The translations under genes were made by a program, and so were the position numbers. A DNA stretch of 64,000 nt from NCBI GenBank assembly GCA_963696075.1, contig CAVOJD010000036.1, positions 2,199-66,198 on the forward strand, written 5' to 3'. Under the pieces are notes generated by a model. The model was given only the letters and a program-made list of their open reading frames with translations. It was not told where the DNA came from and did not search any database. Within the stretch, counting starts at the first letter, position 1; every line of letters begins with the position of its first letter. This DNA comes from an uncultured Alphaproteobacteria bacterium. GTDB taxonomy: Bacteria; Pseudomonadota; Alphaproteobacteria; Rhizobiales; Hyphomicrobiaceae. Below are positions 51,265 through 56,704 of this stretch, piece by piece.

Positions 51265-52191
51265 TCAAGAGGCGCCAAGAACCGTACAGTCAGGGAATTC
51301 GCGCTCGACCAGCGACCGCAGCAACTGCGCGAGTTCGCGGTACTGCTCATGGCGTGCCGTGCTGCGCCGCCACATCATCCCAACGGTGCGATAGATCGCC
51401 CGGTCATTCAGTTCGATAATCGCAACGCTGTCATCGCGTGCCGCCACCGCACGTACATAAAGGCCGGGCAGGAATGTCACGCCGAGCCCCATCGCAACCA
51501 TCTCCCGCAGCGTATCCAGGCTGGTCCCTTCGTAGTCGTAGCGCAGTCGTGCCCCGAACTCCTCGCTGAGCGCCAGCGCGGCATCATGCAGCTGATGCCC
51601 CCGCGCCAGCGCCAGTATGTCCTCCCCCTCGAGATCCGCCCGCACCACCTTCGCCTTCTTCGCGAGCGGATGCCCCTTGGCAACGGTCAGATACAACGGC
51701 TCGCGAAACAGCTCCTCAACATCGATATCACCGTGCTTGACCGGCAGCAGCGACACCAGCAGATCATGCCGCCCCTCGCTCAGTGCGCTTGGCAGGCCGC
51801 TCGGCAGTTCTTCGCGTACGTAAAGCTTGAGGTCCTTGTAGTGGCGCTGCAGCTCGGGGATAACGATTGGGAGAAAATACGGCCCGATCGATGCCGGCAG
51901 CCCAAGCCGCAGGATGCCGGCAAGCTCGCGCCCCCCGCTTGATGCCAGCGCCCGGATTTCATCGGCATCCGCCAGCATCCGCCGCGCAATCTGCACGATC
52001 TGCGCGCCAAGCGGCGTCATCATTACCCGGTTGCGCGTCCGCTCCACCAACTGCGCCCCAAGCCGCACCTCCAACACCTTGAGTTGCTCGCTCAACGTCG
52101 GCTGCGTGGTGTTTGCCCGCTCTGCGGCGCGCCGGAAATGGCGGGTTTCATCGAGTGCCACAAGATATTCAAGCTGTCTCAGATTAGGCAT
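51265..52191 (-). CDS. LysR-family regulator, OxyR-like but lacking both redox cysteines
   Basis: LRQLEYLVALDETRHFRRAAERANTTQPTLSEQLKVLE aligns along its length with OxyR. The positions equivalent to OxyR C199 and C208 read GHQLHD and ALSEEFG. Confidence 0.85.
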   Translation of the reverse strand: MPNLRQLEYLVALDETRHFRRAAERANTTQPTLSEQLKVLEVRLGAQLVERTRNRVMMTPLGAQIVQIARRMLADADEIRALASSGGRELAGILRLGLPASIGPYFLPIVIPELQRHYKDLKLYVREELPSGLPSALSEGRHDLLVSLLPVKHGDIDVEELFREPLYLTVAKGHPLAKKAKVVRADLEGEDILALARGHQLHDAALALSEEFGARLRYDYEGTSLDTLREMVAMGLGVTFLPGLYVRAVAARDDSVAIIELNDRAIYRTVGMMWRRSTARHEQYRELAQLLRSLVEREFPDCTVLGAS

Positions 52192-53037: not shown

Positions 53038-53113
<76 letters not shown>

Positions 53114-53273: not shown

Positions 53274-53666
53274 CTAGCCCGCCAGCACCGCATCGATCTC
53301 ATTGACGAGCTGCTTGAGGTGAAACGGCTTTGACAGAACGCGCGCGTCCGGGCGCACACCGTGCCCCTCGTCAGTATTGAGCGTAACCGCGGCAAAGCCC
53401 GTGATGAACATGATCTTGAGCATCGGATCGAGTTCGCTCGCCCGCCGCGCCAGCTCAATCCCGTCCATCTCCGGCATCACGATATCGGTCAGCAACAGCG
53501 AAAACGGCTCCTGCGACAGGCGCTCATAAGCCGCAACGCCATTCTCGAACGCATGCACTTCATAGCCCGCACGCGTCAGCGCCCGCTCGAGAAAGCGGCG
53601 CATCGATTCCTCATCCTCCGCCAGAAGGATCCGTCGAATGGGAAGGCTCGATGGCTTCGCGGTCAT
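53274..53666 (-). CDS. cpdR: single-domain response regulator CpdR
   Basis: RILLAEDEESMRRFLERALTRAGYEV, EPFSLLLTDIVMPEMDGIELARRASELDPMLKIMFITGFAAV, LSKPFHLKQLVNEI matches the CpdR pattern. ATG at 53666. Confidence 0.8.
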   Translation of the reverse strand: MTAKPSSLPIRRILLAEDEESMRRFLERALTRAGYEVHAFENGVAAYERLSQEPFSLLLTDIVMPEMDGIELARRASELDPMLKIMFITGFAAVTLNTDEGHGVRPDARVLSKPFHLKQLVNEIDAVLAG

Positions 53667-53992
53667 GAAATACTCCCAGGGGCGTCGAATTCTCGCCAAC
53701 GGCAAAGGCGACACGGGTCGCAGCCGCTTGTCAGGCCCCAATGTGCCGCCGTTTTGGTAAATGACCGGTGAACCACGTCGCATTCATGGCACATCTCAAC
53801 ATCCCCCGTTGCCATTTTGCGCGCAATAACGAAAGTCTGATTGTTGTCCCTTCGCACTTGCAACATGTCATAAGCCGACGCACAGTCGATCGGGATGTGG
53901 CGGTCAACGTTAAGGGGAACAGCTCCGATCGGCACGAAACACGTGCCAAGCTACCTCTGCCCATAAATTGAAAGCGATTGCGGGACGTCTAC

Positions 53993-54892
53993 ATGCCATC
54001 GAGAGAACGCCAGGCAATCGCCGAAGAAATCAATCCTCCATTCTCCATCTACCGCCCGCGCGAGCAGACCACGCCCCTCGTCTTTTGCTCCCCCCATTCA
54101 GGCCGCGTCTATCCGTCCGTGCTGCGGGAGGCAACCAACCTCGACGAGCTCGGCCTGCGTAAATCGGAGGATTGCTTTGTTGACGAACTCTTCTCCAGGG
54201 CACCAGACGCCGGCGCGCCGCTGATCGCAGCCCACTTCCCCCGCGCCTACCTGGACGTCAACCGCGAGCCCTTCGAGCTCGATCCCGAGCTCTTCGACGA
54301 GCCGCTTCCCGCCTTCGCCAATGCCCAGACAATGCGCGTCATCGGCGGCCTCGGCACGATTCCACGCATCGTCGCTGAAGCGGAAGAGATCTACGACGCC
54401 CCCCTGTCGCTCGCCGTCGCCATGGTGCGCATTGAACGCCTTTACCGCCCCTTTCACGCCGCACTCAACGAACTGCTTGAGACAACGCGAGAGCGCTTCG
54501 GCTATGCCGTCCTGATCGATTGCCACTCAATGCCGTCTGCGTCGCTGACATTTCCGGCAACCACCCGGCCTGAGTTTATTCTCGGCGACCGCTTCGGCAG
54601 CTCATGCGATTTCCGCGTCACCCGCACCGCCCGCGAGGCCATCGTGGACCTCAAATACCGCGTCCAATTGAATCGCCCCTATGCCGGCGGCTTCATCACC
54701 GAGCACTACGGTCGTCCGTCAGAAAACCTCCATGCGCTGCAAATCGAGATCAATCGCGGCCTCTACCTGAACGAACGAACGCTGCAACGCGCCCGCCACT
54801 TTGATGCCTTTCAGCGCGAGATCTCGACCCTGATCGCCAGCCTTACCAGCCGTATTCCAACGGTCATAGAGGGCAGTCTTGCCGCCGAATGA
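53993..54892 (+). CDS. N-formylglutamate amidohydrolase family protein
   Basis: LVFCSPHSGRVYP, AHFPRAYLDVNREP, LIDCHSMPS, PYAGGFIT, LQIEINR. Confidence 0.8.
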   Translation: MPSRERQAIAEEINPPFSIYRPREQTTPLVFCSPHSGRVYPSVLREATNLDELGLRKSEDCFVDELFSRAPDAGAPLIAAHFPRAYLDVNREPFELDPELFDEPLPAFANAQTMRVIGGLGTIPRIVAEAEEIYDAPLSLAVAMVRIERLYRPFHAALNELLETTRERFGYAVLIDCHSMPSASLTFPATTRPEFILGDRFGSSCDFRVTRTAREAIVDLKYRVQLNRPYAGGFITEHYGRPSENLHALQIEINRGLYLNERTLQRARHFDAFQREISTLIASLTSRIPTVIEGSLAAE

Positions 54893-55056
54893 CGGCTCGG
54901 CCTGGCGCCAATTTCCCACCTCTCCCGTCCACGTCCCGCTTCGCTGGTATCCAGCCCCGCCTTGCGCACGCCGTGCGCCCTCAGTCCGTCCGCCGTTGGC
55001 GCCAAACCGGCGTTGCCTTGGTCCGCGCTGACGATAGCGACTCTGGGGCTCCAGGC

Positions 55057-55149
55057 AAAAAAAAAGGCCGCTCGATGAAGAGCGGCCCGAAGTCTAGGGA
55101 GGAAACGCCCAAGGAGGGCAGCAGTCGATGAAACCATCGACCACACCGA
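55057..55149 (-). ncRNA. candidate trans-acting sRNA A (anti-Shine-Dalgarno CCUCCC type, AbcR/alpha-r15-like)
   Basis: Minus strand: hairpin GUCGAUG/CAUCGAC, hairpin GCCC-UCCUU-GGGC, single-stranded GUUUCCUCCCUAGACUUC, then terminator GGCCGCUCUUCAUCGAGCGGCC plus U9. Candidate promoter TTGCAA-N18-GATATT at 55156-55185. The 5' end is inferred only. Confidence 0.5.
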
Positions 55150-55472
55150 GAAGGTAATATCGCATTGCACAATTCGCAATTGCAAAAACCGCAAAGCTGA
55201 CCTGCATTCGTAGAGGAGATCCAGCCGAAGCCGCGCGAAATACGCATAGCGAGCGCATAACACACTGTTAAATAGGGGATTTCACCAGAGCGACCCTGCG
55301 ACGTTTTAGCCTTCATCCGACAGAGGAATGTATTCCAACGAGCCCGATACGCGACCAGACAGCTCTTCAAGTCGGCAAAAACCAGACAAAATATCGCAGC
55401 GCAGCAAAAATCAGAAACGTGAAGGTCCCTGATCAGCAAACCGTCACTGCAAGGTTCCCTTGCCTGCTCCAC

Positions 55473-55582
55473 AAAAAAAGGCCGCTCATCAAGAGCGGCC
55501 CGAAGTCTAGGGAGGAAACGCCCAGAATGGGCGCAGGTGAGCCAGGGCTCGCCTGTAAGACGAATATGGGAACGATTCGGTT
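55473..55582 (-). ncRNA. candidate trans-acting sRNA B (paralogue of A)
   Basis: Shares the 45-nt 3' module (GGGCGUUUCCUCCCUAGACUUCGGGCCGCUC...GAGCGGCC plus U7) with sRNA A. Has an upstream hairpin with GUUCCCA. Candidate promoter TTGACA-N15-TATTGT at 55589-55615. The 5' end is inferred only. Confidence 0.5.
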
Positions 55583-55873
55583 CACGTCACAATACGACAG
55601 ACGCGAAAATGTCAACTCTCGAGCGTCTGACACCCGTTCAAGCTGTAAGTGTGACGATTTAGACCCGGTTGAGTTGCATGCTTGCCCGGCACGTGCCCAA
55701 TGCTGCGCCCACGTCATCCAATTCGGTGCCCTTGAGCGCGACAATTACTGGCCGGATACGTCACGAAATGCGATTGAGCCTGGGGCCGCGCAATTCAGCC
55801 GCGCTATGCTGGCGTGGTGCCCGGCCCCCACACACCGCCGCAGCCTGCTCAACACCATGACCTGCTCAACACC

Positions 55874-56704
55874 ATGACAGACCCGAAATCGCCCGACGAT
55901 CACGCCGGCAGAATAGCTTTGATGCACCAGGCAGCCGACGCCGCCGGCCAAGCCATTCTGCCGTTCTTCCGCACCGGCCTCGACGTCGACGTCAAACCCG
56001 GCAACCGCCCCTTCGATCCCGTGACTGAAGGCGATCGCGCGGGCGAACAAGCCATCCGAAGCCTTCTCGCGTCCGGCGCGCCCAACGATGCCGTTTTCGG
56101 GGAAGAATTCGGCGCCATCGAACCCGCCGCACCGAGCGGCTATCGCTGGATCATCGACCCGATCGATGGCACCCGTGGGTTCATTCTCGGCCTGCCAACC
56201 TGGGGCACGTTGATCGGCGTCGAGAAAGACGGCGTCCCGACCCTCGGCCTCATGGACCAACCTTACGTCGGCGAACGCTTCTATTCTGACGGCACCGCGT
56301 CCTATTTCGCCCGCCACACAACCACCCCGCGCCGCCTCGAAACGCGCAACACCCAATCCCTTGCGGAAGCCCACATGGCGGCAACCCACCCCGACATCTT
56401 CGCCTCCCCCCACGAGCGCAGCGTCTTTGATAAATTCCGCCAGCGCGTCCGCGACACCCGTTTCGGGACCGACTGCTACGCCTATTGCCTGCTCGCCGCC
56501 GGCTTCATCGACATTGTCATCGAAGCAGGCCTGCAATCGTATGATGTCGCAGCCCTGATCCCGATCATCGAGCATGCTGGCGGATGCATCACCACCTGGG
56601 ACGGCGCCCCCGCACAGGCCGGCGGCCGCATCATCGCGACCGCCAATCCAGCGTTGCACGCCGCGGCGCTGACCGAGATCCGCGCAACTGGCGGATCGCC
56701 CTGA
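55874..56704 (+). CDS. inositol monophosphatase family protein (histidinol-phosphatase HisN-like)
   Basis: PVTEGDRAGEQAIR, FGEEFG, WIIDPIDGTRGFILGLPTWGTLIG, LGLMDQPYVGERF, DCYAYCLLAAG, WD. Confidence 0.8.
   Translation: MTDPKSPDDHAGRIALMHQAADAAGQAILPFFRTGLDVDVKPGNRPFDPVTEGDRAGEQAIRSLLASGAPNDAVFGEEFGAIEPAAPSGYRWIIDPIDGTRGFILGLPTWGTLIGVEKDGVPTLGLMDQPYVGERFYSDGTASYFARHTTTPRRLETRNTQSLAEAHMAATHPDIFASPHERSVFDKFRQRVRDTRFGTDCYAYCLLAAGFIDIVIEAGLQSYDVAALIPIIEHAGGCITTWDGAPAQAGGRIIATANPALHAAALTEIRATGGSP

Follow-up and report, generated by a model that had tools for sequence, protein, structure and literature searches.

Two tandem alpha-r8 (MmgR/SuhB-type) small RNA genes and a decayed middle copy predicted between an FGase-family gene and hisN in a Hyphomicrobiaceae genome

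What is encoded in the 981-nt gap that separates an FGase-family gene from hisN, between positions 54892 and 55874 of the 64,000-nt stretch of DNA analysed here (the window), which comes from a metagenome-assembled genome of an uncultured Hyphomicrobiaceae bacterium? A sequence-only reading had placed in it two tandem paralogous minus-strand genes for trans-acting small RNAs (sRNAs) with an exposed anti-Shine-Dalgarno (anti-SD) CCUCCC motif, and had assigned them to the AbcR1/AbcR2 (alpha-r15) family. The kind of gene was recognized correctly, and the family is a different one. Very probably, the genes in the gap belong to the alpha-r8 family of trans-acting sRNAs that depend on Hfq, two of them functional and a third decayed. 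MmgR (Sinorhizobium), SuhB (Sphingopyxis) and SisA-D (Caulobacter) have been described from this family. The features discussed below are compiled in Table 1.

Table 1. Features of the sRNA locus and its flanking genes, in positions of the window.
Feature	Position	Strand	Evidence and remarks
FGase-family gene	53978..54892	+	PF05013, E 6e-74; convergent with the sRNAs; synteny anchor of alpha-r8
Unit 1, predicted alpha-r8 (MmgR/SuhB-type) sRNA, ~93 nt	55057..55149	-	5' end inferred; 3' end is the U9 tract
Unit 1, RF00519 match	55050-55126	-	80.5 bits, E 4e-15, model positions 1-77 of 77
Unit 1, terminator stem-loop, Rho-independent	55065..55088	-	Terminator scan, 9 pairs; followed by U9, 55065-55057
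Unit 1, seed, 10-mer UUUCCUCCCU, anti-SD	55096..55105	-	Sequence; within 17-nt single-stranded stretch
Unit 1, 5' stem-loop, core GUCGAUG-GUUU-CAUCGAC	55121..55144	-	Fold; domain beyond the Rfam model
Unit 1, promoter	55155..55185	-	-35 TTGCAA (55185-55180), N18, -10 GATATT (55161-55156)
PhaR/AniA-type operator GAATTG-TGCAATGCG-ATATTA	55175-55155, core 55169-55161	-	Predicted; in the spacer of the unit 1 promoter
Decayed middle unit (pseudo-sRNA)	55290..55415	-	Promoter match, global alignment, repeat D2
Perfect 21-nt PhaR consensus TTTTGCTGCGCTGCGATATTT	55409-55389	-	Predicted operator in the decayed unit
Unit 2, predicted alpha-r8 sRNA, ~84 nt	55473..55556	-	5' end inferred from RpoH-like -10; 3' end is the U7 tract
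Unit 2, RF00519 match	55464-55539	-	62.6 bits, E 1.6e-10, model positions 1-77 of 77
Unit 2, terminator stem-loop	55479..55501	-	Terminator scan, 9 pairs; followed by U7, 55479-55473
Unit 2, seed UUUCCUCCCU	55509..55518	-	Sequence and fold
Unit 2, promoter, RpoH (sigma-32)-like	55563..55592	-	TTGTGA (55592-55587)-N16-CCCATAT(T) (55570-55563)
hisN, histidinol-phosphatase, IMPase family	55874..56704	+	PF00459; TIGR02067, 284.8 bits against cut-off 275.15; divergent from the sRNAs

The two units and their family

As had been noted, the GC content of the gap is low (0.577 versus 0.628 across the window), and none of its open reading frames has a genome-like GC3, the values being 0.57-0.64 compared with 0.74-0.78 for the flanking genes. 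Only the figure for the frame at 55419 had to be corrected, from ~0.57 to 0.64. In tblastn, the similarity of the gap ORFs to relatives does not extend beyond the sRNA units with their promoters. On these two grounds, low GC3 and restricted similarity, a protein-coding role of the gap ORFs was rejected.

The FGase gene, whose closest named relatives belong to metagenome-assembled genomes (MAGs) of uncultured Hyphomicrobiaceae and Hyphomicrobium, ends 165 nt from unit 1. On its upstream side lie the gene of a CpdR-type single-domain response regulator (53274-53783, minus strand; NF046022, 181.1 bits against a cut-off of 180) and a tRNA gene (53041-53112, minus strand, 68.6 bits) with the anticodon loop UUGACAU, read as GAC and thus Val. 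The nearest LysR gene, at 51265-52191, is OxyR-like, and the tRNA, cpdR and FGase genes lie between it and the sRNAs. At the opposite end of the gap a perfect 17-bp tandem duplication, two copies of CCTGCTCAACACCATGA on the plus strand (55844-55877), spans the start of hisN. It yields a first ATG at 55857, which opens a 6-codon frame with a TGA overlapping the hisN ATG at 55874.

A repeat search returned a direct repeat of 52 nt, at 55060-55111 and 55473-55524, with a start-to-start distance of 413 nt, in good agreement with the two units ~415 nt apart of the sequence-only reading. On the minus strand both copies run, as described there, from GGGCGUUUCCUCCCUAGACUUC through a 9-bp GC-rich hairpin into a run of nine or seven uridines, respectively. 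Each unit folds into three stem-loops, with z-scores of -5.2 for unit 1 and -4.9 for unit 2. The 10-mer and the next seven bases are unpaired in the folds of both units, the 10-mer in the MFE as well as in the centroid structure. The first hairpin loop distinguishes the two classes: unit 1 and its orthologues have GCCC-UCCUU-GGGC, whereas GCCC-AUUCU/ACUUU-GGGC is found in unit 2 and the orthologues of that unit.

The units also differ in their 5' hairpins, as had been pointed out, with GUUU and CCCU as loops, neither of which carries an anti-SD motif. In 97% of 69 Hyphomicrobiaceae units, the 36-nt segment that precedes the weak hairpin folds into a strong hairpin (median z -3.0 compared with shuffles), and these hairpins are very divergent in sequence. 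By folding, this variable 5' stem-loop is thus a conserved domain of the Hyphomicrobiaceae alpha-r8 RNAs. The structural description relies on the score of the Rfam model and on single-sequence folds; an RNAalifold consensus from a MAFFT alignment of 35 cores was set aside as wrong because indels in the terminator misalign.

In a scan of the whole window with Rfam 15, both units matched RF00519 (suhB/MmgR, alpha-r8) over the entire model, above its gathering score of 41 bits and with E-values far beyond chance. No other RF00519 match is present in the 5.4-Mb genome. RF00519 is the family listed as suhB, 'Makes More Granules Regulator RNA' or mmgR, and hisN is the 'suhB'-type neighbour, suhB being the name which the Rfam entry bears. 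Rfam assigns it to clan CL00108. The alpha-r8 family has been defined by a Rho-independent terminator, a single-stranded 5'-UUUCCUCCCU-3' following a weak hairpin, and linkage to FGase (Vogt et al. 2025, PMC12559287). All three hallmarks are present in both units, namely a terminator with a U-tail, the exact 10-mer in unpaired form and the FGase linkage. Family membership by sequence and structure, synteny, conservation, copy-number pattern and promoter motif classes are shown directly.

It is highly improbable that the units are cis-acting leader elements of hisN, in line with the idea of a 'suhB element', or mere repeated terminators or relics without being independent RNA genes. The family was indeed first described as a motif close to suhB-type genes. 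However, hisN and FGase are encoded on the other strand, so that neither mRNA can include the units, each unit comes with a conserved promoter-like block and a 5' hairpin of its own, the plus-strand hairpins are not followed by a T-run, and the homologues are proven trans-acting sRNAs (PMC12559287).

The CcsR/ar14-type alternative that had been named besides AbcR found no support: a permissive scan of 54800-55950 listed none of the alpha-r14 (NfeR1), alpha-r35 and CcsR models among its matches up to E=10. In RNAs of the AbcR/alpha-r15 type the loop of the first hairpin from the 5' end displays an anti-SD motif, and their locus lies beside the LysR regulator LsrB/VtlR. That the units are AbcR1/AbcR2 homologues repressing ABC-transporter mRNAs is barely credible, for all the tandem paralogous layout with an anti-SD motif and the likewise split promoters of the S. 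meliloti AbcR siblings, one factor-dependent and one of RpoH1 type (PMC8844928), since the ar15/AbcR model RF02345, searched directly, has no match at E<=10 in the whole genome while RF00519 matches full length, the 5' loops are of another kind, and the units are flanked by FGase and hisN with no LsrB/VtlR-type LysR gene beside them. The mislabel is understandable because ar15 has its second hairpin and terminator module in common with suhB (del Val et al. 2012, PMC3346310).

Promoters of the two units

For both units of the alpha-r8 pair sigma-70 promoters had been proposed, TTGCAA-N18-GATATT for unit 1 and TTGACA-N15-TATTGT for unit 2. Both strings exist, but neither passes the threshold of a sigma-70 scan, and orthologues do not preserve the -10 of the second.

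The unit 1 promoter is conserved in orthologous units. The predicted operator in its spacer consists of a core YGCRNYGCR with AT arms and deviates by one mismatch from the 21-nt S. meliloti consensus WNWDDNYGCRNYGCRNHHWNW. This full PhaR motif has been confirmed by EMSA in the mmgR promoter of S. meliloti, where it is located 13 nt upstream of the start site (PMC12542648). Such an operator characterizes S. meliloti mmgR and is no defining trait of alpha-r8 as a whole. Across the Hyphomicrobiaceae loci 40 of the 43 proximal, middle or single units have a PhaR core box between -110 and -30, but only 6 of the 27 distal ones do, compared with a background of ~0.10 in random windows, and the boxes cluster at two fixed positions. 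The genome encodes phaR and two phasin genes, and one phasin promoter outside the window (G000:C8:450395) contains three PhaR-core boxes, TGCACTGCA, TGCGTTGCA and TGCACTGCA, within 70 nt, mirroring the paired boxes of S. meliloti phaP1 and phaP2. Because phaR is present and a phasin promoter carries three boxes, the PhaR-type motif appears to be in use in this genome. With a sigma-70-type promoter and a PhaR/AniA operator in the spacer, unit 1 would report the status of carbon storage (polyhydroxybutyrate, PHB), as at S. meliloti mmgR.

Unit 2 is devoid of a PhaR box. Its promoter-like element TTGnGA-N16-CCCATAT is kept across the orthologous unit 2 promoters, including CGAATC in the spacer (55579-55574; CGAAY across orthologues). 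The more general motif TTGNNN-N13-17-SSCATMY was found in 19 of 27 distal units but in only 2 of the 43 others and 1% of background windows. Its end invariably lies ~55 nt ahead of the seed, which leaves ~7 nt to the base of the 5' hairpin. The element is similar to the RpoH1 consensus of S. meliloti, CTTGAA-N16-CCTATAT (PMC8844928), having a good -10 (CCCATAT) and a weak -35 (TTGTGA). It also resembles heat-shock promoters of the host, i.e. those of dnaK (GTTGAA-N16-CCTATAT), clpB (CTTCAA-N15-CCCATATC), groES (CTTGAC-N13-CCCCATAT) and an hsp20 gene (CTTGAA-N17-CCATATC), in a comparison of individual promoters made by eye, the strict motif scan of the genome having returned too few sites for a regulon. 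From the motif, the odds that unit 2 depends on RpoH appear roughly even; under such a conserved RpoH-like promoter it would report stress.

Possibly, unit 2 is transcribed instead from a sigma-70 promoter together with a factor that binds the conserved CGAAC. In favour of this the -10 reads GCGCATAC in other Hyphomicrobium genomes. The TTGACA-N15-TATTGT promoter, which would give an RNA of ~110 nt, is an unlikely driver of unit 2. Five of six genus-level orthologues retain its TTGACA (55615-55610), as does L028, the sixth (G003) having TTGACT. Against it stand the short N15 spacer and the -10 (55594-55589), which reads ATGTTG, TTCTTG or TTATTG in orthologues, and it is the TTGnGA-N16-CCCATAT element that is conserved instead, with its family-wide position relative to the 5' hairpin. 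On the minus strand this TTGACA precedes the RpoH-like -35 by 18 nt and has no conserved -10 partner. It may serve as an UP element, an operator or a second promoter.

An EcfG-type promoter (GGAAC-N16-17-CGTT) was rejected for unit 2, the window reading GAAC-N17-CGTC, which is not conserved in orthologues. As to sigma-54, there is just a poor GG-N10-GC match ~100 nt upstream of unit 2.

The middle copy and the evolution of the array

Between the two units, remnants of a third are discernible. Of the 28 perfect matches to the 21-nt PhaR consensus that the genome contains, TTTTGCTGCGCTGCGATATTT is the only one in the window. Over 19 nt, at 95% identity in blastn, it corresponds to the middle-copy promoter in a genome of the same genus (G001), and a 14-nt repeat links its region with the box and the -10 region of unit 1. 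In a global alignment with the middle unit of G001 what is left of the seed is UUCCUCUG (55328-55321), and neither the weak hairpin nor the terminator has survived. The distance between the outer copies, 413 nt here with two copies, compares with 414 nt in G001 and 432 nt in G005, likewise of the same genus, which have three copies each. The remnant is best read as a middle sibling that decayed in place, the alignment past the promoter being weak. A third live copy was rejected, as RF00519 has no match between the two units even at E<=10 and only the promoter remnant and this weak alignment remain. Middle copies in the genus of the window show seed variants, such as UUUCCUCCUU in G001, which hints at a relaxed constraint on them.

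RF00519 matches occur in all 24 genomes of the same family, 22 of which show tandem arrays of two or three copies, spaced at most a few hundred bases apart, and genomes from other families of the order mostly have one. With a local profile of the unit core, used in nhmmer over 80 FGase-anchored loci, an alpha-r8 copy was found at 72, where it directly follows FGase and is encoded on the other strand. Two or three copies are present at most of the Hyphomicrobium and Hyphomicrobiaceae FGase loci; those of Rhizobiaceae, Phyllobacteriaceae, Brucella, Methyloceanibacter and Kaistia contain a single one. In the three-copy arrays of four Hyphomicrobium MAGs (L049, L053, L056 and L057) both FGase-proximal units have PhaR-type boxes, with differing promoter layouts, and the RpoH-like motif is present in the distal unit only. 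Tandem siblings as such are not new because several alpha-r8 copies, some of them adjacent, have already been reported for many genera, according to the part of PMC12559287 that cites Lagares et al. 2016. Beyond this known picture, the sibling-specific conserved promoters and the third copy, which has decayed while its PhaR box is intact, are a modest addition.

From seed to terminator (55057-55105 and 55473-55518), the two siblings are 94% identical to each other in their 3' modules, compared with 61-88% identity to the positional orthologues of the same-genus genomes G001, G004 and G005. In G003 the 3' modules are likewise closer within the array than to positional orthologues. Promoters and 5' hairpins, unlike the 3' modules, track the positional class. 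This pattern of identities suggests gene conversion of the 3' module within the array.

Proposed mechanism and comparison with known systems

For both units we infer transcription, Hfq dependence, regulators and targets by analogy. Each RNA, ~85-95 nt in length, would consist of the variable 5' stem-loop, the weak GCCC/GGGC hairpin, a 17-nt single-stranded stretch opening with the family 10-mer UUUCCUCCCU, the Rho-independent terminator and the U-tail. As in SisA, MmgR and SuhB, the 10-mer would pair on Hfq, for which the genome encodes an hfq gene, with the Shine-Dalgarno regions of target mRNAs, and translation would be repressed. For SisA, repression of targets via the 10-mer with Hfq has been demonstrated by compensatory mutations (PMC12559287). 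The siblings have a seed in common and appear to be wired to different signals, and their differing 5' stem-loops and first hairpin loops (CUCCUU versus AYUYU) may tune the choice of targets while the seed remains unchanged.

In S. meliloti the phenotype is linked to phasins, whereas the two phasin mRNAs of this genome pair with the seed no better than background (-7.4 and -12.0 kcal/mol; background mean -8.6, 5th percentile -13.9), and phasin mRNAs are therefore unsupported as direct targets. The best seed-complementary sites adjacent to start codons in a genome-wide scan belong to the TRAP transporter genes dctP and dctQ and to murB, which are candidate leads at a level that carries no statistical support after multiple testing.

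Taken together, we tentatively propose, at somewhat below even confidence, that alpha-r8 of Hyphomicrobiaceae is a conserved tandem array of siblings acting as a signal integrator, in which a PhaR operator would connect the FGase-near copies to PHB and carbon, an RpoH-like promoter would connect the distal copy to stress, and turnover would proceed by birth and death together with gene conversion of the 3' module. The main value of the analysis lies in annotation, i.e. two Hyphomicrobiaceae sRNA genes are placed in a characterized family and the AbcR label is excluded. To the field of sibling sRNAs the family-wide pattern, with two to three tandem copies, a promoter class (PhaR box or RpoH-like) set by array position, and one copy in decay, offers a natural system for the question of why bacteria retain several copies of one seed.

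Among the known systems, AbcR1/AbcR2 (alpha-r15, RF02345) resemble the locus in their tandem siblings, their anti-SD seed and the 3' module which they have in common with suhB. They nevertheless form a different family, from which the units described here are set apart by the covariance search, the synteny and the 5' loop.

SuhB of Sphingopyxis granuli TFA belongs to the same alpha-r8 family as the two units, and its deletion leads to over-accumulation of PHB and to stress resistance (bioRxiv 10.64898/2025.12.09.693200). It is, however, a single copy under a LysR-type regulator, while no LysR gene adjoins the array studied here.

MmgR of Sinorhizobium meliloti is like both units in covariance family, in the 10-mer, in the weak hairpin followed by the terminator and in the linkage to FGase, and the PhaR/AniA-type operator of the mmgR promoter has its predicted counterpart in unit 1. 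In contrast to the single 77-nt copy of S. meliloti, two live copies and a decayed one are arranged here in tandem, the units have an extra 5' stem-loop each, giving lengths of ~85-95 nt, one copy is without a PhaR box, and neither an NtrC nor a sigma-54 element was identified.

SisA-D of Caulobacter crescentus are multiple siblings having a seed in common and unrelated promoters, as is the case here (PMC12559287), and in both systems the sibling copies are presumably expressed differentially. One of the Caulobacter copies is located beside an FGase gene as well, and the mechanism established there is anti-SD repression on Hfq. Whereas the Caulobacter siblings are dispersed, the units described here stand in tandem at the FGase locus.
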